Counted from the stretch's first letter, positions 1 through 27,724 are shown. The stretch is 64,000 nt of DNA from Patescibacteria group bacterium (GCA_038062295.1 JBBTXL010000008.1:1430-65429); one strand, 5' to 3'. Notes: a model not told the origin generated them from the sequence alone. Translations and numbers: made by a program.

Positions 1-1
1 G

Positions 2-1963: not shown

Positions 1964-2006
1964 GGACTCAACCAGTTTGCTGCTTGTGACAGCGTAACTG
2001 AAGAAC

Positions 2007-2050: not shown

Positions 2051-2092
2051 TGTCTCGGAAAGTGGGACAAGCCATCAAGCCCGTAACGAATT

Positions 2093-6573: not shown

Positions 6574-6588
6574 TATCGTGAATATACC

Positions 6589-8739: not shown

Positions 8740-8750
8740 CCATTCATCCG

Positions 8751-8759
8751 TGGTATAAT
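8751..8759 (+). promoter_or_regulatory. candidate extended -10 promoter element (TGgTATAAT) upstream of 8771/8813 gene
   Basis: cgTGGTATAATat seen directly; no good -35. Confidence 0.3.
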
Positions 8760-8770
8760 ATATTCTCTGC

Positions 8771-9970: not shown

Positions 9971-10029
9971 TATCCAAGGTGCACACAGGTTGCGGCTTCA
10001 GAATGTTTCACGTATAGTGTGCATACATT

Positions 10030-11880
10030 ATGGGCGGTCTCCCCTCTGAAGAAATAAAGTCCCGGCTTGATATCCACGACGTCATTGCGGGGTATATCCG
10101 CTTGCAAAAGCAGGGCGCGAATTGGCGTGCGCTGTGCCCGTTCCATAACGAGAAAACACCCTCGTTTTATGTGTCCGCCACGCGGCAAATGTGGCATTGT
10201 TTCGGATGCGGGGCCGGGGGCGATATGTTCACGTTCGTGATGAAAATGGAAGGACTTGAGTTTCCCGATGCGTTGCGCCTCCTCGCGAAAAAAGCGGGAG
10301 TTGTTCTGAAAGCGCAGGACCCAAAACTCGCGAGCGAGCGCGCCACGCTCCTTGCAATCTGTGCGCAGGCGGCGCGTTTTTTCCGTACAAATCTTGAGGA
10401 AGGGGAATCGGGCGCGGCGGCGCGCGCATATCTTTTAAGTCGCGGGCTTTCGCGCGCGACCATCGGAGAGTTTGGCTTGGGATATGCTCACGCCGGCTGG
10501 GATTCTTTGTTTCAGTTCCTTGCCATGAAAGGGTACGCGGCGGGCATGGGGGAAAAGGCGGGGCTTATCAACAAGAGCGAAAAGTCCGGCACGGCGAAGT
10601 ATTACGATAAATTCCGCGACCGCATCATGTTTCCCATCGCGGACCACAACGGCGACACCATCGCTTTTACCGGCCGTTATCTCACGCCGCGCGAAGGAGA
10701 AGGGAAGTATGTGAACAGTCCCCAAACGCTTCTGTATAACAAAAGTGCAGTGCTGTACGGCATGGACAAGGTAAAAATGGAAGCGAAAAAGAAGGATGTC
10801 ATCGTGCTCGTGGAAGGGCAAATGGACGTGATCATGGCGTGGCAGGACGGCGTAAAAAATGCGGTTGCGGTGTCGGGTACCGCATTCACGACGCAGCAGC
10901 TGAAACTTATCGCGCGCTACACCAAGAACATCACCATTCTGTTCGACGCCGACCCGGCGGGCGATAGTGCCACACGCAAAAGTATCGCGCTCGCGCATGC
11001 CGGAGGATTTTCAGTTCGCGTGGCGCGCATGCCCGAAAGCAAAGACCCGGCGGATCTTGTCGCCGCCCGGCCAGGGGAACTTGCAGGTGTTGTGGACGGG
11101 GCTGTTTCCGTCATGGACTTCTATTTTCAGATCGCCGCCGAACGGCACGACCCCAAGATGCTCGCGGGCAAAAAGGCCATCGGGGACCTGCTGCTGCCGC
11201 AGATAAAAAAGATCGCGAATAAGATAGAGTCGCATCACTGGCTGGAGCGCCTGTCGGTGATGCTGGGGGTAAAAATGGATTATTTGGAAGAGGAAATGCG
11301 CGTCGTGAAGGACGACGACGAACGCGCGTTTGCCGGAGACGAACAGCAGGGTAACAACAAGGACATACGCGCCGAAAAGACGGCGGTTGATAAGCTTCTG
11401 GAGCATATCATTGCGGTCTGCTCGGCCGTCCCGAACAAAGAGGAGGCGAAAGCGCTTGCCGCCTCTCTCGCACACTATGAGTTTCCCGCCATGATCGTTG
11501 ATGGCACTCCTACGGCTCGTGAATTGGTGAGTCCGGGCATGGCGGAACTGTTTACTTTTTTCTACCGGCATGGTACTATTGACCCGCTTTCAAAGGAAAT
11601 TTCAAAGGACGGGCTTGAGCAGGGTACCGCGGCGCTGCGGGAGATCCTGCTTGCCGCGGAACTTGGTTCGTACGAAAATCCCGCGCATGAGATCATATTC
11701 TGCGCACGGCGCATAGAACAGGAAATGTTGGATGCGGAATTACAAAAGCTCGAAGCGGCGCTGGCGGCCGCGGAGGCCGAGCGCGACCCGGTGCTTTCCG
11801 AACATCTGTTTCAGGAAGTACATGCGTTAAGCGCAAAGAAGATGAAGCTGTTTGCACCTTCACCACAACCGGCGGCATGA
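10030..11880 (+). CDS. dnaG: DNA primase DnaG
   Basis: CHC2 zinc finger [13 protein letters not shown]...[11 protein letters not shown]; Toprim [18 protein letters not shown]; followed by rpoD (MMS operon synteny). Confidence 0.9.
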
Positions 11881-13106
11881 AGAAAAAAGGCAACACCAAG
11901 CAGCTGAAAAAACGCGCACATCATCCGGCGCGTCATTTGGCGCATCCGGCCGCGAAAAAACAGGCTGTCGCGAAAGGAGCCCGCATTGGAGCATCGGAAC
12001 GAGGGAAGAAAAAAAGGGTGCTTTTGTTTGAAAAGCCGGTTGAGGAGCTTTTGGAACGCGGCAAGCTCCGCGGTTTTGTGACGTATTCGGAGATCTTACA
12101 TCTGCTGCCCAACATTGAAAAAGACATTGATGTCCTGGAACGCCTCTACGAGCGCTTAAGCGACGCCAACATCAACCTGGTGGATTCCAAGGACCTTTTG
12201 GAATTGCCGCAGCAGGATGAAGCGGCGCCCCCTCCCGCCAAAAAGAAGAAAAAATCGGAAACGTTCTCCGAAGATACCGCGCACGACTCGGTGCAGATCT
12301 ACTTGCGGGAGATCGGCCGTATCTCGTTATTGACCGGCGATGAAGAAAAAGAGCTCGCCAGAAAAATAGAGCAGGGGAATGAGGAAGCGAAAAAAAAGCT
12401 TACGGAAGCGAATTTGCGTTTGGTGGTCAGCATCGCTAAAAAATATATCGGCCGCAGCCCGCACCTCACGCTTTTGGACCTTATCCAGGAGGGGAACCTT
12501 GGTTTGTTCAAGGCCGTGGAAAAGTTTGATTATAAAAGGGGATACAAGTTTTCCACGTACGCGACGTGGTGGATCCGCCAGGCCATCACCCGGGCGCTTG
12601 CCGACCAGGCGCGCACTATCCGCATTCCCGTGCACATGGTGGAAACTATTTCACGCTTTACCCAGGTGAAGCGGCGGCTCTTGCAGGATTTGGGGCGCGA
12701 GCCGCTTGCCGAAGAAATAGCGGCGGAAATGGGTTTGGAGGTAGAAAAGGTTCGTCATATCATCAAGATCTCGCAGGAAACCATTTCACTTGAAACACCA
12801 CTGGGGGACGACAGCGAGGATTCAACACTCGGCGAATTTATTGAGGATGAAAAAGAGATCATGCCGTCGCAATCTGCCGCGCGCCGTCTTTTGAAAGATC
12901 AGATCCGTGAGATCATGGACGATTTAAACCCCCGCGAGCAAAAGATCCTTGCGATGCGTTTTGGTATTGAAGACGGCATTACGCATACCCTGGAGGAAGT
13001 GGGGAAAGAGTTTGGTGTCACGCGTGAGCGCATCCGCCAAATTGAAGCAAAAGCGCTTGAGAAGATCCGTACCCACCGGAAGATTCACAAGTTGGAAGGG
13101 TATTGA
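11877..13106 (+). CDS. rpoD: RNA polymerase primary sigma factor (sigma-70, RpoD)
   Basis: region 2 [40 protein letters not shown], region 3/4 motifs; 4-nt overlap with dnaG. Confidence 0.92.
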
Positions 13107-13152
13107 TTTTGCGCGCCGGCACCAGTATAGTGTCCGTGTTCTTTTTTTGTAT

Positions 13153-13224
13153 TCCGGGGTAGCGCAGCGGTAGCGCAGGCGACTGTTAATCGCTTGGTCG
13201 TGGGTTCGAATCCCACCCCCGGAG
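13153..13224 (+). tRNA. tRNA-Asn (anticodon GTT); no encoded CCA
   Basis: hand-folded cloverleaf: acceptor TCCGGGG/CCCCGGA, D-stem GCGC/GCGC, anticodon stem GGCGA/TCGCT with loop CTGTTAA, T-arm GTGGG-TTCGAAT-CCCAC. Confidence 0.85.
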
Positions 13225-14811
13225 CAACATAGGATTTTGAGAGTATAAATCGCTCATATCTGTATTAACCAAGCAATTTTTGAGAGGTTCTAACCTTTCG
13301 TACATCGCTTTTACCTCATGAGAGGCCTCTTTGATGAGTATGAGCGGTTTTTCTAGTGAGACATTGAGTATTCTGTCTTTTAGCGTGAGGTTCGAACCCA
13401 GAAACATGAGGATACCTTTTTTCACTTCAAGTGAGTCTGTTGTGTCAAAAGTTTTCTTTGCGGTCCGAGCAAACTCAAAATATTTTTCTGCTTGTTCAAG
13501 CCAATCATCTGCTCGTTGCCCAGTATCATCCATCAACATTTCTACGTGATGTTTTTCTTCTAAAAAAGCTGTTTTATTTTTCGCAAACTCCTCATCTGTT
13601 ATATCTCCACCCGCCCGCATACCAATAAGGTTATCAAGCTTTTTAAGCACCTTATCATACTCTTTTCGCTGACTACTGATTATTTGCGTTCTGCCGTGAG
13701 CTTCAACGACATTATTGCTTTTCAGCACATCCAGCGCCCACTCGCAAAAGTCATTAGGCAACTCAATTTCACCTAGAGTGCGGGAGATCTGTTTTTGCAG
13801 TCCCGTCTCTTCAATCGAGCTTTGTGAGCAGTCCGGATTTCTCCTTTTTGTGCAGTGATAGTAGGTGTAGAAATGCACATTGCCATTCTTTTGTCTTTTC
13901 ACTTTAGATTCAGCTGTTATCAAAGCGCCGCATTCTCCGCACATAATCGGACCACGAAAAGCAAAGTCATATTTCTTGGGTCGTGTTGTTGCCTTATTGC
14001 CAAGCAATACTTGTACCCGGTCAAACTCCTGTCTGGTGATCATCGGGGGATGGCCTCCTGTTTTCCAATTACCGCTTCCTCTTGGATATTCAAAATCACC
14101 ATAGTAGAAAGTATCATTTAAAATTCTATACACCGTACTCCGAGCTATCTTCTTGCCTTGTCTGCTTGTAAGATTCCACTCATCTCGTACAATTTGCCAC
14201 ACCTTATTTACCGTATGCCTACCCGTAAGCATAAGCTCAAACATCTTGCGGACCAAATCAAATCGCTCCGGATCCCTCAATATCTCTTTCTCTCCTTTCT
14301 TTTTCAACGGATTGTGCATATAGCCAAGCGTGGCATAGGTTGGATACCACCCTCTTTCCATTTTTGCTCTCAACCCTCGTTTGGTATCCACGCTCAAATC
14401 ACGGATAAACTGATTCGCCATGCCAAGCTCTACCGCCATCATAATCACATTATCTGCCGGGTAATAGCTTCGCCCGTATGTTTGAATGTGTTGGATTGCC
14501 CCTTGTTGCAACATCCAGCTTATCTGGCCGCCGTCAATTGGGTTACGAGCGAGGCGGTTGAGCTTCCAGCAAATAATCCCTTGAGCTTCACCTTTAAGGA
14601 TTCGCTCAAGCATCTTGTTGAAGATCTCTCTGCCGGGCCCCTTTGCGGACTTTGACTCAGTAAAAGTATCCACCACGTTTAATCCATGCTCTTCCGCCAG
14701 TCGTTTAAGCTCGGTGATTTGAGCATCAATGGATGCCATTTGCCGGTCCTCGCTTTCCGATGATTTCCGAGCATAGATGAAGTATTTGATTTTTGCTTTT
14801 TGTTCGTTCAT
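13186..14811 (-). CDS. large serine recombinase (integrase) of the integrated element; 3-prime end of ORF runs into the tRNA-Asn sequence; likely start MNEQKAK at 14811
   Basis: resolvase-type catalytic N-domain YARKSSESEDRQMASIDAQ; recombinase domain; zinc ribbon CGECGALITAESKVKRQKNGNVHFYTYYHC; C-terminal coiled-coil. Confidence 0.85.
   Translation of the reverse strand: MNEQKAKIKYFIYARKSSESEDRQMASIDAQITELKRLAEEHGLNVVDTFTESKSAKGPGREIFNKMLERILKGEAQGIICWKLNRLARNPIDGGQISWMLQQGAIQHIQTYGRSYYPADNVIMMAVELGMANQFIRDLSVDTKRGLRAKMERGWYPTYATLGYMHNPLKKKGEKEILRDPERFDLVRKMFELMLTGRHTVNKVWQIVRDEWNLTSRQGKKIARSTVYRILNDTFYYGDFEYPRGSGNWKTGGHPPMITRQEFDRVQVLLGNKATTRPKKYDFAFRGPIMCGECGALITAESKVKRQKNGNVHFYTYYHCTKRRNPDCSQSSIEETGLQKQISRTLGEIELPNDFCEWALDVLKSNNVVEAHGRTQIISSQRKEYDKVLKKLDNLIGMRAGGDITDEEFAKNKTAFLEEKHHVEMLMDDTGQRADDWLEQAEKYFEFARTAKKTFDTTDSLEVKKGILMFLGSNLTLKDRILNVSLEKPLILIKEASHEVKAMYERLEPLKNCLVNTDMSDLYSQNPMLLRGWDSNPRPSD
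13208..13223 (+). repeat. direct repeat copy 1 (tRNA-Asn 3-prime end, putative att core)
   Basis: GAATCCCACCCCCGGA, identical to 23601..23616. Confidence 0.6.
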
Positions 14812-14935
14812 ATAATCAAAAAGGGATAACCCCGTTGGACACAATCACCCTTGCGAGTTTTTGTAGGCGGAGTTACCCCTCTTTAAATGCAAAAAATCGC
14901 AAATCCCAGTAATTGTGTCCATGTTTATCATACCA

Positions 14936-15601
14936 CTACTTTTGCTTTACAGCAAACCGACCAAACCGCTTATTCAGCCGTGCGGCCATCATAATAAAAC
15001 CGGTCTCAAACTTCTCATTCAGCCGTATTACTCGTCTGTATTTTCTGGTTGGCTTACCCTTGTAATAATATCGCTTAACCTCTTTCTCTGCTTTTTCTAT
15101 GTCAGGGATTGATACAAACCCCTTGTATTTACCACCCTGCATTTGGGAGGCATAAGTAATTCCTCCACAGTGTCGGCAACCGAACCATTTGCCAATGCTG
15201 TAAATCACTCCAACTCTCCGCCCGCAGTATTGCCCATTTTTAGACAGGGGGCATATAAACCAGTATCGCACACCGCCATAATTGCAAGGAGTCATAGTAA
15301 GTTCAATCTTATAATCCATTTCTTCTTTTTCGCTGTTCCATCTGTCTGTATGAGTATAATATAACCTTGCATACGCTCTCTCATCCGGAGTGCCCCAATT
15401 ATCTCTGCTTACAGCAAACCCGATACTACTTTTATTCTCGCTATAGCCGTAAGTCCAAGTAATGCCACCAGATCGATGACTATAATCCTTGTGCAGATAG
15501 CCATGCTTTTTAAGCCAGAAGATACCTAAGCTGTTATTCTGTTCTGCTACACTTTTAGACATAAGCTTTTTCAATCTGCCGAAATCATTAAAGATGAGCA
15601 T
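14936..15601 (-). CDS. hypothetical Cys-rich (zinc-ribbon-like) protein, element-encoded
   Basis: ORF track; CNYGGVRYWFICP...CGRRVGVIYSIGKWFGCRHCGG cysteine pattern; AT-rich codon usage matching element. Confidence 0.5.
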   Translation of the reverse strand: MLIFNDFGRLKKLMSKSVAEQNNSLGIFWLKKHGYLHKDYSHRSGGITWTYGYSENKSSIGFAVSRDNWGTPDERAYARLYYTHTDRWNSEKEEMDYKIELTMTPCNYGGVRYWFICPLSKNGQYCGRRVGVIYSIGKWFGCRHCGGITYASQMQGGKYKGFVSIPDIEKAEKEVKRYYYKGKPTRKYRRVIRLNEKFETGFIMMAARLNKRFGRFAVKQK

Positions 15602-15787
15602 GGTCTTTAAACTTTAAAACCACCATTTTCATTCCCTCTTTGTTATTACTGTTATCATACTGCTTATCAGTATAAAATCCACCATTTCCCGCCATTTTTA
15701 TACAGATAATGTTTTCCATGTTTTTCCATGATATTTTATCTTGCACAACCCCCTCTTTATCAGGTCAATGAACTAAAGCGTATCGTC

Positions 15788-15888
15788 ATAGTTAACTGTT
15801 ACCTTATAGGAAATCTATCATGTAACATAATAGTACTATCATTAAGTTATTCTATATAGTTAACAATACTATAGATAATTAACTATAG
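15788..15888. promoter_or_regulatory. cluster of three ATAGTTAAC/TTAACTAT sites (two direct, one inverted) in intergenic region inside the element; candidate operator
   Basis: ATAGTTAAC at 15788..15796 and 15856..15864; inverted TTAACTAT at 15879..15886; flanked by palindromic CTATAG. Confidence 0.3.
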
Positions 15889-15890
15889 AG

Positions 15891-16217
15891 TCAGAGTGTT
15901 ATCTCTGGATCAATGCCAAGTCTCTTTCTGAAGTGTTCTTCACTTTGTTTGTAGTATTCCTCCCACACTTTCGTTTCTAACTGTTTCCAAAGCTCTTTAT
16001 CGGGAGCAAAGAAGATGGGGTGGTAACTGCCTCCGCCACCCTTGTACGATGGGGGAGTGAGCCATAATTTATCTCCTTTATAATTTGGATGCTGTGATTC
16101 CTGCACCCGGAAGCCCTTTACAACAAAATCTCCGAAATCAAGGGTGATAATCGCTTTTAATTTCTTCTCCTCGATAACTTTCACTTTCACGGTAATTTCA
16201 TCGATATTCATGGTCAT
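15891..16217 (-). CDS. SpoVG-like protein, element-encoded
   Basis: IDEITVKVKVIEEKKLKAIITLDFGDFVVKGFRVQESQH resembles the SpoVG N-terminal consensus (recalled from memory, not searched). Confidence 0.5.
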   Translation of the reverse strand: MTMNIDEITVKVKVIEEKKLKAIITLDFGDFVVKGFRVQESQHPNYKGDKLWLTPPSYKGGGGSYHPIFFAPDKELWKQLETKVWEEYYKQSEEHFRKRLGIDPEITL

Positions 16218-16269
16218 AGTAATATGGTGTTAGTTTATTAAATAAATGCGGTGGCGGGGCTATGCGAGC

Positions 16270-16497
16270 TTATTTTTGGTTGTCCCCGCGCATATTTGAG
16301 AGATGCCAGAGATGAGCCAAAATGCTTTTCTTGCTGGTTTTCTCATAATCCTCATTTTCGACGAGTTTGGAGAACCAGCGGTGTATCGTTTGTTTGCCAA
16401 ATCCTTCTCCTTTTAGCGCTTCAGCAAAACATGTGTAGGAACTCCAATATGGGTTTCTATCCCCAATGTTTTTGAACCGTCTTTCAAGTGATTTCAT
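16270..16497 (-). CDS. hypothetical small protein (element)
   Basis: ORF track only; same strand as neighbours. Confidence 0.3.
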   Translation of the reverse strand: MKSLERRFKNIGDRNPYWSSYTCFAEALKGEGFGKQTIHRWFSKLVENEDYEKTSKKSILAHLWHLSNMRGDNQK

Positions 16498-16509
16498 ATT
16501 TTTATCATG

Positions 16510-16737
16510 TTAGGTTTTGTTAAGTTTTTTATCCTTAGACGCGTAGTTACTTTTTAAGATTAGCTCTACGAATTCTGCCAACCTGATTCCTTTTACCAAT
16601 GCAGTTTCACGGTCCAATACCACGCCAAAATTCTTTCGGTAGATTTGAATGAAGGCATTGATTTGTTGATCCGTGATTCGCATCTTATTTATCGTGTAGT
16701 ATGTATCCTGCTTTTTAGTTCCCTTCTCGCATTCCAA
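16510..16737 (-). CDS. hypothetical small protein (element)
   Basis: ORF track only; overlaps alternative ORF 16689..16964. Confidence 0.3.
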   Translation of the reverse strand: MECEKGTKKQDTYYTINKMRITDQQINAFIQIYRKNFGVVLDRETALVKGIRLAEFVELILKSNYASKDKKLNKT

Positions 16738-16964
16738 AATCCCTTCGGTTCAACGGAAAGAGCGCCGGACCAGAATTGGCTTACGGCATTAGAAAGCTTT
16801 TCACTTTTCTTAAATACAAACCCGACCCTTGGGTGTTCTTTGGGGTCTCTGTTTATCGCCACAATAGGAAATTCCAGATATTGCAATGCTGAACACAGTG
16901 CTAGATCATAGAATTCTTCATGCTCCTCGCTGGGGAGGTACTTAAAATCATCTTTTTGTTTCAT
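16689..16964 (-). CDS. hypothetical small protein (element); overlaps previous call, only one may be real
   Basis: ORF track only. Confidence 0.25.
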   Translation of the reverse strand: MKQKDDFKYLPSEEHEEFYDLALCSALQYLEFPIVAINRDPKEHPRVGFVFKKSEKLSNAVSQFWSGALSVEPKGFWNARRELKSRIHTTR

Positions 16965-17017
16965 ATCATTTTTTTAGTTATTTTATTAATTGCGACCTTG
17001 ATGATTTTTTTAAAAAA

Positions 17018-17053
17018 TAAAAAAGTCATACTAATTACAGTATGACTTTTCTA
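17018..17053 (-). terminator. bidirectional intrinsic terminator (perfect 12-bp stem AAAAGTCATACT/AGTATGACTTTT) downstream of 17097..18035
   Basis: aaaaaataAAAAGTCATACTaattacAGTATGACTTTTctat; A-run on one side and T-run on the other. Confidence 0.5.
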
Positions 17054-17096
17054 TAAAATTTTGTTTGAATATTAGACTAAACCAGACTAAATCGGA

Positions 17097-18035
17097 CTAC
17101 TCTGGATTGTTTTTTATATGAGCAACCTCCAACTGCTTTAAAAATAGAGGTATTTTTACACCAATTTTTACTAAATCTTCTTTTGATATTTCGCCCCCAT
17201 TGTAAACCACCACAGACTTTCCTCTTTTAGGAAAGAAAGCTTTTAATATTTCGGCCTTAAAGCCAAGTTCATTAAGTATTTTTGTAAAGCTTTTATTCTT
17301 TCTTAGTGTATCAGGGATGTCTTGGTTTCTAATTTTTGTATTTTTTGGTTGCGAACGAACATATTCAAAAAATTCAAAGTTAATTCCTACAGCGTGTGGT
17401 TTTCCTATAAGGTATTCGTTAACCAGTATTTTTCGATCTTTAACTGAAATAACGAATTTTGATGGTTCTTGTTTTGTTTGTATTTCTTGAGCAGTTGATG
17501 GGTTAATTTTGAGCTTTTTATCAATCAAATCCTGCACTCGGCGCAATCCATCTAACGAACTTACTTTTAGAAAAACATAACTTTTCAACTCTTCTTTTGA
17601 TGGCAAATAATCGGGTAATTCATTTTCATCAAAAGCTGTAACGCTTGAAGGAAATACAACTCTTGTTCTCTGATACTCTTTTATTTGGTAGAGTAATTCT
17701 GCGTTTGTAACTTTGACACTGTCTACTCTATTCAGCACACCGCTTATATCGTCTGAATATACCTGCTCATTTTCAAACTTTTGTAAAGATATTTTGACCA
17801 CTTCTGTCAATCTATTAACGGGCTGAAGCTGTAAGAAATCAAGAGTAATCTTAATAACTTTTTGAGCAATTTTAAGATTTTCTTGAGTGAGTTTTTCCCA
17901 ATCAAAAATATCCGTATGTAAACTGGAGGGTTTTATCTTTTTCTCTCCATCTCTTTTGAAACCGTCCTCATAACGGCGAAACAGTTTATCAAACTTCGAC
18001 TGGACTATTTCTATGCGAAACAATTTATTACTCAT
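17097..18035 (-). CDS. hypothetical protein (element); start taken at MSNKLF with ATGAGTAA overlap of upstream stop
   Basis: ORF track 17097..18158; internal Met 42 forms overlapping stop/start with 18028..18261 ORF. Confidence 0.5.
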   Translation of the reverse strand: MSNKLFRIEIVQSKFDKLFRRYEDGFKRDGEKKIKPSSLHTDIFDWEKLTQENLKIAQKVIKITLDFLQLQPVNRLTEVVKISLQKFENEQVYSDDISGVLNRVDSVKVTNAELLYQIKEYQRTRVVFPSSVTAFDENELPDYLPSKEELKSYVFLKVSSLDGLRRVQDLIDKKLKINPSTAQEIQTKQEPSKFVISVKDRKILVNEYLIGKPHAVGINFEFFEYVRSQPKNTKIRNQDIPDTLRKNKSFTKILNELGFKAEILKAFFPKRGKSVVVYNGGEISKEDLVKIGVKIPLFLKQLEVAHIKNNPE

Positions 18036-18261
18036 ATTCCCATGTGCCACCTCTATTTTGTATTTTAATAGCACCCCATTCTTCCAGCTTCTCAAGTATT
18101 GCCGCCTTATCTGTGGCTGATGGAGAACTACCAGTGGTGTCAAAAAAACCAAAATCAACCCAATATAAAATTGGGTTGCCTTTTTTGGTATACAGCGACC
18201 TTTCCTTGATTTGTCTTAAAACATACCAGACATTCTGATTAAATTTTTCTTCTGGGGTCAT
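18028..18261 (-). CDS. hypothetical small protein (element)
   Basis: ORF track; translational coupling with downstream gene. Confidence 0.4.
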   Translation of the reverse strand: MTPEEKFNQNVWYVLRQIKERSLYTKKGNPILYWVDFGFFDTTGSSPSATDKAAILEKLEEWGAIKIQNRGGTWEYE

Positions 18262-18438
18262 AGTAATTTATGTTAATTTCATTGTAATTTACCTATATTC
18301 TACCATTTTTCAGCTATTTTTTCAACCTACTAAAACGTTGTGTATTTTTTGCAAATTTTAGTGGTTTATGGTATTTTATAAGCAATAATTAAGCATCGCC
18401 TAACCCTCGTGGTTTTACTACAAGGTATGGCAACAAAC

Positions 18439-18481
18439 ACGGTTCAGGTCATTAAGCTCCTAGTCAGAGCACCTGAACCGT
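18439..18481. promoter_or_regulatory. perfect 11-bp inverted repeat ACGGTTCAGGT...ACCTGAACCGT with 21-nt spacer in divergent intergenic region of the element
   Basis: seen directly; lies between the leftward operon and the rightward 18566 gene. Confidence 0.3.
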
Positions 18482-18565
18482 CATATCCGAAAGGGTATGG
18501 GTGTCGCAAGACATCGCTGGCTGGGAGCTTTGTGTCTATATTCCCACTAGCTTAGAATAATTACT

Positions 18566-21523
18566 ATGAAAATGAGAACACGATTTAGCAGGATAGCTAC
18601 TTTGACGGCATTAACCATTCTTTTGGCTGTGCCTGTTTTTGTTTTCACAGTACCATATTCATATGCGGCACAAAACATTGTTGATGGAGACTTGGTGACC
18701 GTTTCTCCTAATCCAGATATCTATATTGTCAAAATTATAGGTGTCAAAAAGTTTAAAAGGCTCATCCTCAATCCCGATATTTTCGATTCCTATGGGCATC
18801 TCAAATGGAGCAATGTAAAAATGATTGATCAGGCAACCCTTGATTTGTATAAATCTTCTGAACTTGTCATTGAAATCAATGCTGATGGGAGCATTGCCGA
18901 CCCCAAGGTATACAGAGTGGTTTCTTCGGCAAATAGCGATGTTGGCGAACGAAGCTGGTTGAATTTAACAGCTTCTGAATTTGAAGCCGCGGGGTATGAT
19001 TGGGATTCGCTTTATCATGTTAATCATAGAGAAGCATTACCTAGTTTTTACCCAACGAAAAATCCTCTCACATATCAGGATGTTTTAAAAATTAAACAAG
19101 CACCATCTCCATCTGTTCAGGTTGCATTCTCTATCGCGCTAGTTGCTCCGAATAAGATTCTGGCGGGATACGCTACTAATATTGTTATAAAAGGATTTGG
19201 TTTTAAGCAGGGCGCCAGAGTGGACTTTGGATCAGGAGCGACACAAGTACCCTACGGAGTTACGAACTCTGAGCAGATTACCGCACTTATTCCCGCAGGG
19301 ATGCCGCCGCTTACTTATAACCTTTCAATTACGAATCCTGACGGGCAGGTAGCAATTTTAAATGATGCATTAACCTTGCAAGCCTCAACCTCTCAAATTA
19401 TGAATGGTCTGACAACAAGTCAAGTATATGACCTTGTTAGTCCTTCTGTTGTGCAAATAACTAACAATTGTGATAGCTCTCTTGGTAGCGGTTTTGTTTT
19501 TGAAAATGGTGGATACATCTTAACCAATGAACACGTTGTACATGGATGCAGTGCTGTTGGAGTAAAGCTGAAAAGTGGTGTAAATCTTGTGGGAACCGTA
19601 CGTGGGACAGATGCGCTAAATGACGTAGCGGTAGTTAAAATCGACCAAAGTATTCCAACCTTGATTTTAGGTGATTCAAACCTATTTATTGATTCAACTG
19701 TATTTGTTGCCGGACATCCATCTGGTCTTACAAATGTAGTTGTTAATAGGGGTGTTATTAATTCTAGCGGACAACCATGTTTAACCTTTCCTTTGTCCTG
19801 TTCTGGCACTTGGAGTTATCTGACAACGCTTAAATTAGCAGAACATGGTAGTAGTGGAGGGGTTTTGGTGAATGATAAAGGAGAGATTGTTGGATTGCAT
19901 AGAGCAGGAACTGACTCTGTTTCTTTTGCAATACCGATAAATTTCATAAAAGGCATAATACCAACTTTAAAATCTGGAGTATCCACATACACCCCAACTC
20001 CCACACCCTCTCCAGTGCCTACATCCTCTCCAACTCCTGCAACAGTCGTCGCGTTGACTGTCACCAAAAATAGCGGTATGGCTGACGCGACCTCTTCATT
20101 GCCAACGGGCGTGAAGGGAGCGACAAACGTCAAGATCGGTTCATTCGTCTTGACTGCGGGTGCGGGCGAAGCGACATTAGTTAGCCAGATAGTCGTGAAG
20201 AACAGCGCAACCGCAGGATTGGCGTTGGGACATGACTTCCAGAACTTGACTTTGAAGAACGGTACCACCGTTATCGGTTCCCCAATCGGTTCATTGTCAA
20301 CAACGGCAAGCGCGACCTACACCCTTACGCCGTCCTCATCGATAACCATCAATGCGGGACAGCAGTATGTGGTTGACGTGTACGCGGACATCTTAACAGG
20401 ATCTGCAAATGCAGGTGTAGCGGCATATGTTGCAGTGGTATGGGACGATGTGACGGCAGTTGGGAATTCAACAAGCGCCACAGCAGGAGTGGCAACTGAT
20501 GTTATCGGACAAACAGTGTACATCTCAAATGGTGGTTCATTGGTAATCGCAGCGGCTTCAGATATGCCTGTTGCGCAGAACCGCTCAATGGGTCAGACTG
20601 GCCAAACCTTGGTGACATTCAAATTCACTACGGGCGCAAGTGAAGCAGTCAATGTTAGTAAAATCATTGTTACTAACACATTATCAGGTATCGCGATAGC
20701 GGCAACTGGCACTATCACGAACCTCGGATTGTTTAAACCTGACGGGACGCAGGTGGGTACCTACATTTATTATATGACAACGAATAGTGGTCAAGATGCT
20801 CTAGCGACATTCAATGGCCTTACCTTGAATCTTCCGAGAGACACGGCAACGGTCTTGACCTTGAAAGGTGATGTGAACGGCTACCCGAACGGAGTTTCAG
20901 GTAGTGCTCACACTTTCAAGATTGCTACTGTAGCTGATGTTACTGCAACCGGCGCAACCGGCGGAACAACGATTATGGCAAGCGGTCCTTCTATTACAGG
21001 AAACGCGCAGACTGTGTATCGTTCAGAGTTGACTGTAGCAAACGCTATGTCCAACTCCTCGGGTGGTCAGGGTACCGATCAGGTCATAGGTAAATACAGA
21101 TTTACCAATACTTCGGCCGGCAACTACACCATCGCGGTATCTGATATTAATCTTGGATTGACAGGTTCAATTATTAACACTAACGTATCGCGGTACGTTA
21201 CCTTGAAACGGGATTCCGTCAGCGGCGCGACTGTTGCCAAGAAAGTGTTTAAAAACACAAACCTCACAGATATAACAAGTTGGGATCTTTCAGGAACTGA
21301 TAGCAATGAAGTTGCATTCATTCCGTTCACGATTGATTCAGCGGGTGGTACTGGTTACGTTGATTTCTACATATTAGCAGACACTAATGACGCGGCATCA
21401 ACTAGAACCATTTCAACAACCCTTGGAGGTGGCAGTAATGTCATTACATGGGGAGATGGTGTCACAACAGGCATTACTTCGTTGGATAACAAGCCCATCC
21501 CAGGAGCGACCATTACCTACTAA
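18566..21523 (+). CDS. secreted trypsin-like (S1/HtrA-type) serine protease fused to Thr/Ser-rich repetitive surface domain; C-terminal ~480 aa paralogous to the gene at 2..1963
   Basis: signal peptide; protease triad context NEHVVHGC, LNDVAVVKID, EHGSSGGVLVNDKGEIVGLH; C-terminal region SLPTGVKGATNVKIGSFVLTAG...SSSITINAGQQYVVDV...GATITY matches first gene. Confidence 0.85.
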   Translation: MKMRTRFSRIATLTALTILLAVPVFVFTVPYSYAAQNIVDGDLVTVSPNPDIYIVKIIGVKKFKRLILNPDIFDSYGHLKWSNVKMIDQATLDLYKSSELVIEINADGSIADPKVYRVVSSANSDVGERSWLNLTASEFEAAGYDWDSLYHVNHREALPSFYPTKNPLTYQDVLKIKQAPSPSVQVAFSIALVAPNKILAGYATNIVIKGFGFKQGARVDFGSGATQVPYGVTNSEQITALIPAGMPPLTYNLSITNPDGQVAILNDALTLQASTSQIMNGLTTSQVYDLVSPSVVQITNNCDSSLGSGFVFENGGYILTNEHVVHGCSAVGVKLKSGVNLVGTVRGTDALNDVAVVKIDQSIPTLILGDSNLFIDSTVFVAGHPSGLTNVVVNRGVINSSGQPCLTFPLSCSGTWSYLTTLKLAEHGSSGGVLVNDKGEIVGLHRAGTDSVSFAIPINFIKGIIPTLKSGVSTYTPTPTPSPVPTSSPTPATVVALTVTKNSGMADATSSLPTGVKGATNVKIGSFVLTAGAGEATLVSQIVVKNSATAGLALGHDFQNLTLKNGTTVIGSPIGSLSTTASATYTLTPSSSITINAGQQYVVDVYADILTGSANAGVAAYVAVVWDDVTAVGNSTSATAGVATDVIGQTVYISNGGSLVIAAASDMPVAQNRSMGQTGQTLVTFKFTTGASEAVNVSKIIVTNTLSGIAIAATGTITNLGLFKPDGTQVGTYIYYMTTNSGQDALATFNGLTLNLPRDTATVLTLKGDVNGYPNGVSGSAHTFKIATVADVTATGATGGTTIMASGPSITGNAQTVYRSELTVANAMSNSSGGQGTDQVIGKYRFTNTSAGNYTIAVSDINLGLTGSIINTNVSRYVTLKRDSVSGATVAKKVFKNTNLTDITSWDLSGTDSNEVAFIPFTIDSAGGTGYVDFYILADTNDAASTRTISTTLGGGSNVITWGDGVTTGITSLDNKPIPGATITY

Positions 21524-21526
21524 ACC

Positions 21527-21778
21527 ATGAAAAAACTTATCGCCTCTACCGCATTTCTATTTTTATTCATAGCTCTGTTTTATTTTTCCAACCCGGCAGA
21601 AGCAGCCACAAGAACTAGAGGGTACTACAAACCAAGTACTGGTACTTATGTACAGCCGTATTACCGTTCCTCTTCGAACAGCTCAAGATGGGATAACTAT
21701 TCAACGCGAGGCAATTACAATCCCTACACGGGTAAAAAGGGTTATATCAGTCCTTACAAGAGTTATCGGTTTAGATAA
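21527..21778 (+). CDS. small secreted Tyr-rich protein (element)
   Basis: signal peptide MKKLIASTAFLFLFIALFYFSNPAEA then YYKPSTGTYVQPYYRSSS...NPYTGKKGYISPYKSY. Confidence 0.5.
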   Translation: MKKLIASTAFLFLFIALFYFSNPAEAATRTRGYYKPSTGTYVQPYYRSSSNSSRWDNYSTRGNYNPYTGKKGYISPYKSYRFR

Positions 21779-21780
21779 TT

Positions 21781-22131
21781 ATGATCAACAAACTCAACAA
21801 AGTTTTAATCTTATCATGGGCATTGCTTTTTTTAGCGATGCCTATTTTTGTCTCAGCCCATCGTTCCGGTTGTCATCGTTGGCACTCTTGCCCATCTGAT
21901 ACTGGTTCGTATGTCTGTGGTGATTTAGGGCATCCTTGCACGTACCCAACCTATCCCAAGTCTGGTGGTGTTATTTTGCCAGAGAGTGTTGCAACTTTAC
22001 CACAACAACCTCACAAGAAAACCAGTGAAACAGCAAGACAAAAACGGATCACCGTATTGAAAAAGCAGATTTCGGATTTGAGGTTAAAACTTCAGCAATT
22101 AGAGAGCCAACTCAAAGCGCTTGAACAATAA
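21781..22131 (+). CDS. small secreted Cys/His-rich protein with C-terminal coiled coil (element)
   Basis: signal peptide; HRSGCHRWHSCPSDTGSYVCGDLGHPC; C-terminal heptad-like KKQISDLRLKLQQLESQLKALEQ. Confidence 0.5.
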   Translation: MINKLNKVLILSWALLFLAMPIFVSAHRSGCHRWHSCPSDTGSYVCGDLGHPCTYPTYPKSGGVILPESVATLPQQPHKKTSETARQKRITVLKKQISDLRLKLQQLESQLKALEQ

Positions 22132-22212
22132 ATTAAATTGATGTAACAGATGAGTTCACCCGAGTCAAGATATTACGAGACTTTTAGCGGAGTTAGTTTT
22201 TAATCCAATAAT

Positions 22213-22386
22213 ATGGAAATAATAGGTTTAGGTCTAGTCATATTGGGACTTATTTGGACAGTAATCAGTTTTATTATCAAGGTTTTTGTCTATGCTGTTT
22301 ATTTTTTGCCATTTATTGGGTATAAGATATTAGATTTTTTAAGTTTATGGCCACACATTTGGCCACTTAACGGAGTTAGTTTTTAA
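22213..22386 (+). CDS. 57-aa small membrane protein (not in ORF track, below length cutoff)
   Basis: hand translation MEIIGLGLVILGLIWTVISFIIKVFVYAVYFLPFIGYKILDFLSLWPHIWPLNGVSF; ends inside a duplicated ~35-nt motif. Confidence 0.3.
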   Translation: MEIIGLGLVILGLIWTVISFIIKVFVYAVYFLPFIGYKILDFLSLWPHIWPLNGVSF

Positions 22387-22395
22387 CTTAATTAT

Positions 22396-22716
22396 ATGGG
22401 AAAATTTAAATTATCATTACCCATTACAATTTTATTAGCGAGTATTGTTTTAGGCGGCTTCTACTATGCGAGCGAAGCAAACAAACAAAAGTCTACTGAA
22501 AGACAACAGCGAGACGAACAGGTGGTCACCGAAAAAAACCTTTTCGACTTAAAATGGTGTTTAGCGACTGCAGAGGGTGATAGGAAGGATTTTCTAAGAT
22601 TAAACGGTCCTGATGGGCATATTGATGGCCGATATACTAATAATACAACTCTCATACAACAGGCTGAAAGACAAAAAAAGGAAGATGAGCAAAGGTGTTA
22701 TCAGTTATACAAATAA
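22396..22716 (+). CDS. small secreted protein (element)
   Basis: signal peptide MGKFKLSLPITILLASIVLGGFYYASEA; preceded by the duplicated ~35-nt motif. Confidence 0.45.
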   Translation: MGKFKLSLPITILLASIVLGGFYYASEANKQKSTERQQRDEQVVTEKNLFDLKWCLATAEGDRKDFLRLNGPDGHIDGRYTNNTTLIQQAERQKKEDEQRCYQLYK

Positions 22717-22852
22717 TTTATTTCAAAACCAAAAATGCAACCAGGACCTTGGATAGATGCAAACATCTTCGATCCTGATAGCAACGAATTTATTGATGAG
22801 GGGCTGGATGAAGATGATGCTGTTGAATTTGCTGATGAGCTATAAATAGTGA

Positions 22853-23305
22853 GTGGCAGGGTGGGGTAAAAAGGCGTATAGTGAAGTTATGCAAAATGGG
22901 TTAAAAGATAAATGGGTTGAATTTCGTGAGCAACTTGATGCTTTGGGCTACTTGATAGGGGCTGTATTGGTTGTAGGCGCAATTATTTGGGGTATCTATA
23001 GCTTGTTCGGCTGGGGTGAACGAGAAGGTGTAGTGAAGTTTGACGATTGCAGGCAAATGGTAACTCTGAAACCAGATACTTTCCAAAAATACTTCAAATC
23101 CTTTACTTGTATGTATAGGAGAACCGAAAGTGGGAGGATAATGTCGGGTGAGTGTGTCCATATTGATACTGCGGGTACACTGTTTTCAAGCAGTAATGAA
23201 TGTGATACCGCTTATATCTATGAGAAAGAGCAGGAGGGGAGTTGCACGGACCCCAAATATCCATATCTGGGTTACGATGATATGTGTCACACCAACCTGC
23301 AATGA
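22853..23305 (+). CDS. membrane-anchored Cys-rich hypothetical protein (element)
   Basis: ORF track; TM helix LGYLIGAVLVVGAIIWGIYSLFGW; six Cys in C-terminal half. Confidence 0.45.
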   Translation: MAGWGKKAYSEVMQNGLKDKWVEFREQLDALGYLIGAVLVVGAIIWGIYSLFGWGEREGVVKFDDCRQMVTLKPDTFQKYFKSFTCMYRRTESGRIMSGECVHIDTAGTLFSSSNECDTAYIYEKEQEGSCTDPKYPYLGYDDMCHTNLQ

Positions 23306-23501
23306 TACTTTTGAAACAATGAGTAGTTTGATGGGGGTCAGAAGCTCATCGCAAATGAAGGATATTTGAAATGAAACTCACTTTTGCCTTGTAGGAGAAC
23401 AGTTCTAACTTCATCCAGTGCGCGGAGCATCGAAATAAAAAATGTCCCTTTATGGGGTATTTTTTATTTCTGATATTTTAGGAAGTGGGATTCGAAGGGT
23501 A

Positions 23502-23535
23502 TTTCAAAAACAGAAACTGCTTTCTGTTTTTGAAA
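23502..23535. repeat. perfect 15-bp inverted repeat TTTCAAAAACAGAAA-ctgc-TTTCTGTTTTTGAAA ~70 nt inside the right direct repeat
   Basis: seen directly. Confidence 0.4.
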
Positions 23536-23600
23536 ACCCGGGCTCTGGAGGAGTATATTTTTCTTGTGCATATATGCACGAAAAATATGCGGGGGAAGAG

Positions 23601-23616
23601 GAATCCCACCCCCGGA
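23601..23616 (+). repeat. direct repeat copy 2 (putative attR core)
   Basis: GAATCCCACCCCCGGA identical to tRNA-Asn 3-prime end. Confidence 0.6.
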
Positions 23617-23725
23617 ACGCTTGACAAATAGCACAGAAATGTGCTTTATTTGTTTTAGAAAGTTTTCCGAAAAAGAAAACTGCATTCACAACTAAATAGG
23701 GAAGCGAGGAAAGGAGGGATGAAAA

Positions 23726-24307
23726 GTGAACGCTCTGGTCTTGGCTGGCAGTATACTTGGCATCTTAACGTACATTCCGCTGTGGAAGGGGATTAGGTCG
23801 GGTGAGGTGAACCAAAATCTATTCACCTGGATTCTGTGGGTGGCGGTGGACTTCGTTATCGCCGCGTCAGTCATTACGCAGGGCGGGAACTTTTTACTCC
23901 CGGTTGCCTATACGGTGGGGAGCGCGATAACGGCGTTTTTTATCTTCGCGTCGGAGAGCAGGGCTTCTTGGACATGGATTGAGACGGTGGTTGCGCTGCT
24001 TGTTGTAGCAAGTATGGGTGTGTGGGTTTACTCTGGCAGTAAGCTCGCCACCATCGCGAGCACCACGGCAATGATTATCGCGGGAATACCACAGCTTGTT
24101 GATGCGTGGAAGAAGCCCCGGGAAATGCCGATGCCGGTGTTCGTGAGCTACTTTATTGCCAATAGTCTCTCTGCGGCTGGCGGTAAAAACTGGTCCATTG
24201 AAGAGAGGTTTTTCCCGGTAGCATTGGCTTTTTACTGTGTGGCAATAATTTTCTGTTCGGCTCGCCGATTTTGGTTGAAAAGCGCGGTCGACGGGGTGGT
24301 GCATTAA
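23726..24307 (+). CDS. polytopic membrane protein, function unknown
   Basis: ORF track; ~6 predicted TM helices; GC content host-like. Confidence 0.55.
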   Translation: MNALVLAGSILGILTYIPLWKGIRSGEVNQNLFTWILWVAVDFVIAASVITQGGNFLLPVAYTVGSAITAFFIFASESRASWTWIETVVALLVVASMGVWVYSGSKLATIASTTAMIIAGIPQLVDAWKKPREMPMPVFVSYFIANSLSAAGGKNWSIEERFFPVALAFYCVAIIFCSARRFWLKSAVDGVVH

Positions 24308-24456
24308 GTAGTTGGGGATGGGAGAGTAAAACCGACCCGCCCCCCCCCAAAACACTCCGCCCCAATCGCCAAAGAACCCTTATGGTGCTTGGAGGCTAAA
24401 AATTCACGACCTGCATGGGAAAGTCACTGACTGTTTTCTTGATGTGATTTATATTC

Positions 24457-24786
24457 GTGCAGTTAGATCAGGATAGCTTTTTTAACAATCGAATATTGAC
24501 CAAAGAGGAGGATGACATGAACAAGAAGGTTATTGAAATGAACATTAACGATTTTGTCACTGTACGTCTCAGTTCGGAAGGCGTCAGGACCTACGAGGAT
24601 TATTTTAGCACACTGGCAAAGCGGTTGGGACGTCGAAAGGAAGATATTTATATCAAACTTGATCGGCGCCGCGGCGGGCGGGTGGAATTTCCGCTATGGA
24701 GACTGATGGAGATATTTGGTCCGAAGATTTATCATGGTGGACCAATCTTTTTCCTCAACAGCACCGTACGAATCGTTCAAAAGTGA
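24457..24786 (+). CDS. hypothetical protein (probable start at Met 24517, MNKKVIEMN)
   Basis: ORF track; low-GC region. Confidence 0.35.
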   Translation: MQLDQDSFFNNRILTKEEDDMNKKVIEMNINDFVTVRLSSEGVRTYEDYFSTLAKRLGRRKEDIYIKLDRRRGGRVEFPLWRLMEIFGPKIYHGGPIFFLNSTVRIVQK

Positions 24787-25635
24787 CCCTGGAAAAGTCC
24801 CGCGCCTAAACAGCCGGGGCTTTCTTTTATCAGGTAAGTTCCCCATCGTCCCATAAGGCGTGCCGATTTTCTTAGCCAACTCCATGCAGCTATGGTAATA
24901 TTTTTGTATGAATAAAAGGAGAGTGTTATACTCCGTTCTCGCAATAGTATTCGGGGCATGTATTGTTGCATACGGAGGGATTGATGATAGCCCCGGAGGT
25001 CAGCTACTCGGACTCCTGGTAGTTATCATCGGTATTGTAGGCGTGATAAAAAGCAAGAAGAAAATCCTCCTCTGATTTCTTTCCGGAAGATTTTAGTATC
25101 GTTGGTATTTTGATGCGGTGGAACATGAATATCATTCAGAATTACCATCACGCAACCGCATTGCCCTCAAAAAACCGGAAGCATATTTGAAACAATAACA
25201 TTCTTGACATCATAATTCGTACAGGGGCGGGGAAAACGGTGGTTTTCTTTTCCGGCGGTATCTGGTACACTCAAGGCATCATTAACTTATAGAACACACA
25301 TCTATGGCAAAAAGACGCACGGGGATAGATAAACATAAAAAATCGCATTCCCACAAAACCAAGAAGCGGTTGGAAATAAAGAGACTGATGCTCGAAGCCA
25401 AGGCACGCAGAAGAAAGCGTACATAGATACTCCTACGCTGTTCTATGGTATCATGACGGTAGATTCGTACCATTGGCTATCGTATGCGCATACTATCAAG
25501 ACAGTTTTTGACAAGAGCGTTACCATGTGTTGTGCTTTTGTTGTTTTTTGTGTTCGCGGTAGGGCTTTCCTACGCCGAGGAAAATAAGGATCCGGGCAGT
25601 TAACCCCCACTTCTCAAGCACGAGGTGTTTTTATC

Positions 25636-26748: not shown

Positions 26749-26794
26749 AATGCTTCCTTGCGGTCATGAACAAAACATAGGATAATAAAAGCAT

Positions 26795-27663: not shown

Positions 27664-27724
27664 TACTGTTCCTTTTTCTTCTCAGCCGTAGTATACTGAA
27701 GTTGTCTGCTTAGATAAGGTATCC

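Follow-up and report, generated by a model that had tools for sequence, protein, structure and literature searches.

Large-cargo genome engineering relies mainly on serine integrases, enzymes that are thought to avoid tRNA genes. In archaeal integrases of the SSV1 type, which are tyrosine recombinases, attP is located in the integrase gene and integration into a tRNA gene cuts the integrase gene into two large parts. The islands of tyrosine integrases were reportedly divided by Williams in 2002 into classes according to their sublocation in the tRNA gene. Serine integrases are described as not known to target tRNA genes, with 14 candidates out of 297 that need proof (PMC7192596). The small resolvase-type serine recombinase of the filamentous phage phiRSM has been shown experimentally to integrate at the 3′ 13 bp of tRNA-Ser (PMC4471427). 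Among the tycheposon-like elements of Prochlorococcus, most of which use tyrosine recombinases, 27 of 937 carry a large serine recombinase (LSR); the text consulted describes no attachment-site (att) geometry for the LSR-bearing ones. The window analysed here is a stretch of 64,000 nucleotides from a Patescibacteria group bacterium (GCA_038062295.1 JBBTXL010000008.1:1430-65429). Next to its tRNA-Asn gene lies what is very probably an integrative element of about 10.2 kb, belonging to a groundwater, Azambacteria-like patescibacterium, which would have entered by means of its own LSR through a CGGAGC core. This is an LSR system by its domains, homology and site geometry, and is neither a tyrosine-integrase island nor a prophage.

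ARAGORN identifies one tRNA gene in the window, tRNA-Asn(GTT), and the LSR gene approaches it from the opposite strand (Table 1). The first-pass annotation, which was made from the sequence alone, had described the two genes as abutting; they do more than that, as the last 40 nt of the LSR open reading frame (ORF), including the stop codon, are located inside the tRNA gene, and it is from this gene that the terminal ten residues (GWDSNPRPSD) and the stop are read. The likely start of the protein is the ATG at 14811 (M12, an invariant alignment column). The LSR comprises PF00239 (Resolvase, residues 22–165, E 2.7e-18), PF07508 (Recombinase, E 1e-9) and PF13408 (Zn_ribbon_recom, E 1e-6) domains; in an alignment of 28 homologues, R26, S28 and S29, as well as the zinc-ribbon residues C302, C305, C331 and C339, are invariant. 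A PHROG integrase family matches the protein with an E value of 1.6e-59. The SPbeta integrase (PDB 9dxh) aligns with residues 24–435, running through 355–435, and the TP901-1 integrase aligns over 82% of the length with about 24% identity; identity to any characterised serine integrase is at most 25%. No tyrosine recombinase was found among the 14 largest non-nested ORFs scanned between 13186 and 23305, which is nearly the whole interval. The GC content is 40.5% at 13226–23428, compared with 55.2% at 1–13152 and 53.4% at 28001–64000; the contrast with the flanks that had been pointed out is real, although the flanks are close to 54% and not to 60%. The view of the interval as a low-GC element integrated at the 3′ end of tRNA-Asn, with the LSR as its only recombinase, is supported.

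The predicted ends of the element, attL and attR, share exactly CGGAGCA, and the distance from core to core is 10,203 bp (13220 to 23423). In attL, the core is made of the last acceptor-stem bases, the discriminator G and the next two bases. The B arm, within the tRNA gene, places GGTTC, counted from its first G, 23 nt from the end of the core, which is an attB-type spacing, and ATCC (GGA read outward) 7–10 nt from the core. The core of attR is preceded by the P arm of the family, AGTTCTAAC-N13; here the A of AGTTC, which takes the place of the first G of GGTTC in the alignment, stands 28 nt from the end of the core (attP-type, +5), and the distance of ATCC from the core does not differ from that in the tRNA. 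A search of the 64 kb for RGTTCKAAC-N13-CGGAGC gave a single match (23401–23428), with 0.03 expected. Read in reverse, the P arm gives an alternative integrase tail, ...ALDEVRTV..., and the other strand of the P′ arm encodes the integrase C-terminus ...DLYSQNPML. The predicted attP, ...AACAGTTCTAACTTCATCCAGTGCGCGGAGCAACATAGGATTTTGAGAG..., has 23428 joined to 13226 and the junction GAACAGTTCTAACTTCATCCAGTGCGCGGAGCAACATAGGATTTTGAGAGTATAAATCG; the predicted attB, ...GGTTCGAATCCCACCCCCGGAGC followed by the downstream sequence, has the junction GGTCGTGGGTTCGAATCCCACCCCCGGAGCATCGAAATAAAAAATGTCCCTTTATGGGG.

The geometry of these sites recurs throughout a family of related loci. A total of 84 loci were fetched by family alignment or exact look-up; related loci carrying LSR homologues and comparison genomes are designated here by L-numbers, and all loci were anchored on the LSR protein frame for counts of arm spacing. 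GGTTC begins 23 nt from the end of the core in 48 loci with a real tRNA and 28 nt from it in 17 tRNA-less loci with a P-core-P′ arrangement, and GGA occupies outward positions 7–9 in the B, P and P′ arms alike. In the Listeria LI integrase, the inner motif is fixed and the outer motif is 5 bp nearer to the centre in attB than in attP (PMC3783163); the spacing of the predicted arms of the family matches this rule. The LSR 3′ regions of L117 and L112 are near-identical to those of tRNA-adjacent loci but have no tRNA. Their identity stops in the last tRNA bases (CGGAGC in the Asn group, AGGCACCCC in the His group), and a T-arm-like motif is found to the left of the breakpoint, 5 nt further out. 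Four elements, those of L007, L115, L028 and L178, are closed by the same P arm and the last tRNA bases. When the region 23380–23700 was compared with other loci, only the 27-nt P arm was matched, in L018 and L123. In L018 (9034–10665), a close relative of the host, the P arm and core are located 1.6 kb downstream of tRNA-Asn with no recombinase gene between; 26 of 27 nt (96%) are identical to the P arm of the window, and the arrangement is that of an LSR-less deletion relic of a related element.

The association with tRNA genes is equally widespread. At least 120 clusters of LSR homologues were found, those listed being at least 56% identical to the LSR of the window, and among the clusters listed, the few with a source name are labelled as Patescibacteria, or Candidate Phyla Radiation (CPR), lineages. 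A convergent tRNA gene overlaps the LSR 3′ end by 21–38 nt in about 48 of the 84 loci; most of these genes are tRNA-Asn, and others are tRNA-His, -Ala, -Gln, -Trp, -Ser, -Met and others. The relatives span at least eight tRNA species, and a T-arm-like arm is kept. The host genes beside related LSRs vary, being rpoD in the window, a ribosome hibernation factor (S30AE) gene in L007 and a pyruvate kinase gene in L175; since the flanking genes differ between closely related LSRs, the association is with the tRNA and not with the chromosomal neighbourhood. In viruses, the LSR family has one match among 2.9 million viral contigs. Full-text literature searches found nothing on serine recombinases of Patescibacteria at tRNA genes, and this large LSR clade at tRNA 3′ ends is, apparently, an undescribed group. 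The pairing of a tRNA gene with a serine recombinase, considered unusual in the first-pass annotation, is indeed rare in the literature; it is not unprecedented, given phiRSM and the LSR-bearing tycheposon-like elements, and within this clade of Patescibacteria it is the rule.

As attP lies inside the integrase gene, integration would swap the last 27 codons of the free form (...LLR-ALDEVRTVLLQG...) for ten tRNA-antisense codons (...LLR-GWDSNPRPSD). With 23428 joined to 13226, the integrase ORF grows to 569 aa and acquires ...LLR-ALDEVRTVLLQGKSEFHFKYPSFAMSF, a tail matched by the non-tRNA tails of database homologues (LLRLLDDVRTCLMG, LLRGLDDVRTCIMS and LLRLYDKIRTYF). Many LSR homologues end in ...LLRG and others run on with xDSNxRP, which is the translation of an antisense tRNA T-arm. 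Within single 90%-identity clusters, there are near-identical LSRs that differ only after LLR, where the tail is either tRNA-derived or P-arm-derived. There is a slim chance that the tail exchange is functional and provides two proteins according to state, the tail acting as a built-in state sensor that biases integration versus excision; the conserved ...LLRxLD(D/E)VRT... tail would then mark the free form and the tRNA-antisense tail, or an early stop, the integrated one, and the tail would supplement or replace a separate directionality factor.

Two related contigs bear on mobility. L178 contains a 7,764-bp element, with an LSR 61% identical to that of the window, as the only element integrated at tRNA-Asn. 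A second sample of that study yielded L181, a contig of 16,888 nt with an exact terminal overlap of 72 nt, corresponding to a circle of 16,816 bp; it consists of the L178 element (99.98–100% identical) and a second element of 9,052 bp with its own LSR. Both junctions of L181 are P-core-P′, and the breakpoints of identity between L178 and L181 fall in CGGAGC. At the level of sequence, this pair demonstrates that the family is mobile and that exchange occurs at the core. The 9,052-bp element also encodes a tyrosine integrase, an HTH_17 excisionase-like protein, an NYN nuclease, a Trypsin_2 protein and several zinc-ribbon proteins. A P-core-P′ junction is either a true attP or the joint of stacked elements; therefore, the 17 such loci are not counted as free forms. 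None of the loci fetched before L181 was circular in the terminal-overlap test.

The proposed partners of the integration are an attP (P arm, CGGAGC, P′ arm) overlapping the integrase 3′ end and an attB formed by the T-arm of tRNA-Asn, its 3′ acceptor strand and whatever followed the tRNA. The exchange would take place inside the 6-bp CGGAGC (tRNA positions ~70–75), so that only the last tRNA bases would be replaced, and by identical ones, leaving the tRNA intact. The integrase would read the same motifs on both partners, namely the inner GGA/TCC at an equal distance from the core and the outer GGTTCGAA, whose distance from the core is 5 bp shorter in the tRNA than in the P arm and by which attB and attP would be told apart. 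The crossover dinucleotide is probably GA, the centre of CGGAGC, judging by the site geometry and the shared core.

The first-pass annotation centred on a 16-nt repeat of the tRNA-Asn 3′ end, GAATCCCACCCCCGGA, and it was right about its presence and about its improbability: there are two exact copies in the window (13208–13223 and 23601–23616), both on the + strand, whereas the shuffle expectation is 0.02 matches and two copies were seen in 0 of 100 shuffles. The 16-mer starts at the T-loop centre and ends with the last acceptor-stem base; with the next two bases included, 17 of 18 positions match (GGAgC vs GGAaC). The second copy lies 172 nt beyond the attR core. Terminator-like hairpins are found 3–14 nt after the attR core and after the 16-mer, and hairpins of this kind also come after tRNA-Asn at the unoccupied sites of relatives; the presence of a hairpin after both therefore points to two nested contexts of a tRNA end with a terminator. 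The discriminator base after GGA is G in all 19 aligned tRNA-Asn genes of relatives and A in the second copy of the 16-mer, as would be expected of an unselected remnant. A search of 35 related loci for long tRNA-derived repeats (at least 12 nt exact, or 16 nt with at most two mismatches) found them only in the window and in L091. In the latter, which has an LSR 24% identical, a 19-nt tRNA repeat has its copies 7.4 kb apart, with a purine-rich stretch before the right copy, as in the window. The spacer between the attR core and the second 16-mer (23430–23600) is probably what remains of an earlier occupant, and the second 16-mer is rather likely to be the right-end scar of an older element, pushed outward by the present insertion next to the tRNA; this reading is adopted in view of the two nested contexts, the arrangement of L181, with which tRNA-proximal stacking is consistent, and the right-end tRNA repeat of L091.

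Alternatively, the second copy may be the remnant of a second, tandem tRNA-Asn or of a tRNA-like pseudogene downstream of the target. Extra tRNA-Asn copies or fragments do occur shortly downstream in L033, L050 and L084, GGGGG-AAGAGGAAT-CCCAC resembles a degenerate T-arm and the fragment is followed by a terminator-like hairpin. However, nothing recognisable as the 5′ part of a tRNA precedes the fragment, the 171-nt spacer has an element-like GC content of 39%, tandem accretion of elements at a tRNA is documented in the family and L091 provides an example of an LSR element whose right end carries such a repeat, all of which make the tandem-gene origin unlikely. Still less probable is the model of the first-pass annotation, in which the 16-nt repeat is the attL/attR core, the element ends at 23616 and a replacement 3′ part of the tRNA is carried by the element, as happens in tyrosine-integrase islands. 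The exactness of the repeat, far beyond chance, its extent from the T-loop centre to the last acceptor-stem base and the comparable repeat of the distant LSR locus L091 speak for it. On the other hand, the canonical P arm and CGGAGC core at 23401–23428 would then be inside the element, about 188 bp from its supposed right end, and translation across them yields the conserved alternative integrase tail; relatives use cores of 6–8 bp without a repeat of 12 nt or more, the sequence to the left of the second copy (GCGGGGGAAGAG) has no GGTTCKAAC at the attP distance and the L178/L181 breakpoints are in CGGAGC. The 16-mer, accordingly, is retained neither as the recombination site nor as the right boundary. 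A crossover in the T-loop with the 16-mer as the core was also considered and dropped, as the identity in L117 and L112 stops at CGGAGC or AGGCACCCC and a canonical attR was found. Dyad symmetry was weak for the sites reconstructed on the basis of the 16-mer.

The left flank of the element is formed by dnaG-rpoD, and the closest RpoD proteins (80–84% identical) are from genomes labelled Candidatus Azambacteria and other Patescibacteria. The sequence of the window was traced to contig CAYICE010000003.1 of assembly GCA_964361915.1, and it is also present in Hainich H51 groundwater assemblies. The comparison with unoccupied sites, proposed in the first-pass annotation, gave related species in which rpoD, tRNA-Asn and a terminator occur without an LSR (L013, L016, L027 and others, found by a genome scan with RpoD) and in which the genes further downstream are not syntenic. 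At the strain level, rpoD, the 193-aa protein encoded downstream and the LSR cluster were looked up by exact protein sequence; all copies obtained were integrated ones, and no empty site was found.

Several observations weigh against integration by the LSR at CGGAGC as set out above. All contigs bearing the flanks of the window element (from at least three samples, Hainich and other) are in the integrated state, with neither an empty site nor a circular junction among them. Downstream synteny with relatives is lost, and the pre-insertion sequence is therefore not directly readable. Dyad symmetry of the window attP is not significant, 1885 of 2000 shuffles reaching the observed maximum, so that we infer, rather than show, the central dinucleotide; the B′ arm has no recognisable motif. 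The closest LSR, that of L174 (94% identical), has a third type of flank, AAAAGTTTGCGAAGGTTTCAATTC followed by GGGAGC, which fits neither spacing. The exact 16-mer is explained only indirectly, and the L181 'circle' might conceivably be a long tandem array that has collapsed. The idea that the island is a fixed, immobile remnant with a domesticated or inactive LSR, its pattern reflecting ancient vertical inheritance beside tRNAs, takes account of the integrated state being the only one seen for the window element and of the persistence of LSR-less relics such as L018, but it is improbable in view of the intact LSR ORF, P arm, core and P′ arm, a GC content about 14 points off that of the host, the variable genes flanking closely related LSRs (rpoD, S30AE, pyruvate kinase) and the two arrangements of the same element in L178 and L181. 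The element is taken here to be an LSR-driven insertion at CGGAGC, and the copy in the window may still be active.

The related loci have a number of other features. In eight apparent exceptions to the tRNA association, a tRNA-Asn gene is present but has its anticodon loop interrupted by an insertion. The insertion in L100 (11630–11915, minus strand) is a group I intron (Rfam RF00028, 84 bits); similar-looking insertions are present in L102, L106, L110, L116, L126, L127 and L141, and another in L120 (12495–12739). ARAGORN misses these tRNA-Asn genes because the anticodon loop is interrupted, and LSR elements are still found at their 3′ ends. Just after the tRNA end, many P′ arms contain a GC-rich hairpin and a T-run inside the antisense of the region coding for the integrase C-terminus; they were observed in L108, L111 and L117 (GGACTTTGGGCATATATTTCGCCCAAAGTCCTTTTATTT), and in L095, L099, L100, L115, L126, L127, L130, L137, L141, L166 and L171. 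The stems vary in sequence between loci while pairing is kept, and the hairpin is weak in the window (13233–13262); it looks like a tRNA terminator supplied by the element. Beyond the LSR 3′ end of L174 (7222–7262), L118 and L166, there is a conserved non-tRNA flank, AAAAGTTTGCGAAGGTTT(C/T)AATTC followed by GGGAGC; the stretch shared by L118 and L166 exceeds 100 nt, and no Rfam family matches this flank.

The contigs of L102, L107, L114, L138, L149, L164, L174 and L127 stop 0–100 nt from the LSR 3′ end or att site, as would be expected if assemblies branch where one element is joined to several partners in a sample. The LSR junction of L135 is preceded, just past the 3′ end of the LSR gene, by two tandem tRNA 3′ fragments (..GGTTCGAGTCCTATTCCCTGC.. 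and ..AGTTCGAGTCTCGTTCCCTCCGC), an arrangement that suggests repeated insertions at one site. In L175 (5836–5851, minus strand view), the first ~14 bases of tRNA-Asn (ATTCCGCGGTAGC) occur once more about 115 nt upstream of the gene, and this copy may be the trace of a different element targeting the 5′ side. L147 (13008–15195 and 16529–20197) encodes a pair resembling a cyclic oligonucleotide-based antiphage signalling system (SMODS and SAVED-HNH), an IrrE-type peptidase and a large DNA methylase; these genes adjoin the P-core-P′ junction of an LSR of 47% identity, so that some relatives sit in, or carry, defence islands.

The window element combines a conserved module on the integrase side with a variable cargo. 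On the strand of the LSR, a module consisting of DUF5659-like, 75-aa, SpoVG-like and 221-aa Cys-rich proteins and the LSR recurs in other loci; PF18903 genes occupy the same position in L007, L174, L175 and L178. The 221-aa protein is a candidate accessory factor, and its role as a recombination directionality factor (RDF) is speculation; no RDF candidate was found beyond the conserved neighbours. On the opposite strand is a cargo of predicted secreted proteins that does not recur in the related loci examined. The 985-aa protein begins with a signal-peptide-like stretch, and its long C-terminal region is rich in Thr, Ser and Gly; its NCBIfam HtrA-type matches are all below the cut-off. The 221-aa and 353-aa proteins and the small ORFs have no matches in Pfam, PHROGs and NCBIfam. 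The cargo described in the first-pass annotation (a SpoVG-like gene, a protease/surface protein and small Cys- or Tyr-rich secreted proteins) is borne out by Pfam and the translations. The element has no phage or conjugation genes, its only PHROG matches being the integrase and one family of unknown function. A phage origin was considered and rejected: PHROGs, the viral-contig scan and tblastn against phages gave only distant integrases.

The border between module and cargo is divergent and contains a LOOT RNA, 50 nt upstream of the protease ORF. This RNA is present in 11 of the 27 sources scanned (the window and ten related LSR loci), nearly always on the strand opposite to the LSR and 3–6.4 kb from the LSR start, and a cargo gene starts 33–95 nt downstream of it in all four sources checked. 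These features suggest a leader or regulatory RNA at the module/cargo border; no paper on its function was found in the literature. Past the island, the sequence at 23617–28000 has an intermediate GC content of 48.7% for 4.4 kb. It encodes a 193-aa membrane protein, a Fic/DOC protein with a helix–turn–helix motif, a PNPOx-like protein and a response regulator, and may be older acquired DNA.

Table 1. Features of the window, consensus arms of the predicted attachment sites (read outward from the core), elements of related loci and LOOT RNAs found elsewhere.
Feature	Position or size	Strand	Basis or remark
tRNA-Asn (GTT), predicted integration target	13153..13225	+	ARAGORN; Rfam RF00005, 71 bits
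Large serine recombinase (integrase), 552 aa ORF	13186..14844	-	Pfam, PHROG, 9dxh alignment
B arm GGTTCGAATCCCACCCC	13203..13219	+	Geometry common to 48 related loci
attL core CGGAGCA	13220..13226	+	Exact common core with attR
P′ arm (ACATAGGATTTTGAGAGTATAAATCGC...)	13227..13255	+	Family consensus and alignments
221-aa Cys-rich protein, directly upstream of LSR	14936..15601	-	Conserved there in 12 related loci (tblastn)
SpoVG-like protein	15891..16217	-	PF04026, E 3e-9; homologues in L094, L007, L166, L118
75-aa conserved module protein	16270..16497	-	Homologues in 7 related loci
DUF5659-like protein	16689..16964	-	PF18903, 22.3 bits, below the 23.6 cut-off
Two ORFs, 353 aa (312 aa in source record) and 77 aa	17097..18261	-	Not conserved in related loci examined
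LOOT RNA (Rfam RF03000)	18397..18515	+	73.6 bits; gathering score 46.4
985-aa predicted secreted protein, trypsin/HtrA-like domain	18566..21523	+	PF13365 (Trypsin_2), E 6e-21
Four small ORFs (83, 116, 106, 150 aa), Tyr- or Cys-rich	21527..23305	+	Signal-peptide/transmembrane-like N-termini
P arm of attR, AACAGTTCTAACTTCATCCAGTGCG	23398..23422	+	Pattern match; L018 identity
attR core CGGAGCA, predicted right end of LSR element	23423..23429	+	Exact common core with attL
Hairpin and T-run directly after attR core	23432..23470	+	Fits tRNA terminator of pre-insertion site
Spacer, 171 nt, 39% GC, three hairpins	23430..23600		Between attR core and second 16-mer
Second 16-mer copy	23601..23616	+	Followed by AC (tRNA: GC), then terminator-like hairpin 23630-23645
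Consensus B arm			GGGGNN-GGA-TTCGAACC
Consensus P arm			CGNANT-GGA-CGAAG-TTCGAACC
Consensus P′ arm			A...T.-GGA-.TTTG.G.GTA
Element of L007	6.5 kb		Common core GCGGAGC
Element of L115	11.1 kb		Common core CTCGGAGC
Element of L028	8.7 kb		Common core CGGAGC
Element of L178	7.8 kb		Common core CGGAGC
LOOT RNA, L118	6908-7039
LOOT RNA, L122	7367-7488
LOOT RNA, L175	335-452
LOOT RNA, L130	4960-5084
LOOT RNA, L174	384-506
LOOT RNA, L094	1802-1919
LOOT RNA, L007	7712-7832
LOOT RNA, L093	381-498
LOOT RNA, L103	117-235
LOOT RNA, L129	3645-3771

The clade described here, from CPR bacteria, is located at tRNA 3′ ends as a rule, and a site model can be proposed for it from sequence, with a 6-bp core, the GGTTCGAA outer motif and a shift of +5 bp. 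If confirmed, it would offer natural landing sites in any organism and would illustrate clearly how two unrelated integrase families have converged on the use of tRNA symmetry. If the tail sensor were also true, it would make, together with recognition of the T-arm, which is universal among tRNAs, a self-regulating integrase platform that could be retargeted to almost any tRNA through a few core bases. The elements would represent a mobile vehicle for secreted-protein genes in symbiotic, genome-reduced bacteria whose routes of gene transfer are poorly known, and the orphan LOOT RNA gains a genomic home as a recurrent part of LSR elements.

Compared with the serine integrases of Listeria A118/LI, SPbeta (SprA), TP901-1, Bxb1 and phiC31, the LSR has the same order of domains (resolvase, recombinase, zinc ribbon), and the sites likewise have a short common core, an attP adjoining int, the 5-bp shift of the outer motif and the fixed inner motif. 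The differences are that the targets here are tRNA genes rather than protein-coding genes, that attP is placed within the 3′ end of the integrase ORF, the tail of which changes on integration, and that the carriers are small non-phage islands of Patescibacteria. With the tRNA islands of tyrosine integrases (Islander/TIGER type), the element shares the target, a tRNA 3′ end that is left intact, the position of the integrase beside the tRNA, the foreign composition and the tandem stacking at one tRNA; however, the enzyme is unrelated, and the identity block is 6–8 bp here and tens of bases there. The enzyme of phiRSM is also a serine recombinase acting at a tRNA 3′ end, but it is devoid of the recombinase and zinc-ribbon domains, belongs to a proteobacterial inovirus and uses a longer core. 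As in SSV1, attP is inside the integrase gene; here, in contrast, only the last 10–27 codons are exchanged and the catalytic body remains whole. Tycheposons, too, are small, carry cargo, are not phages and are found in association with the tRNA genes of streamlined genomes, though in a different phylum. The enzyme family and its chemistry are thus familiar, whereas the clade-wide targeting of tRNA 3′ ends, the use of the T-arm as a half-site and the location of attP inside the integrase gene are new.

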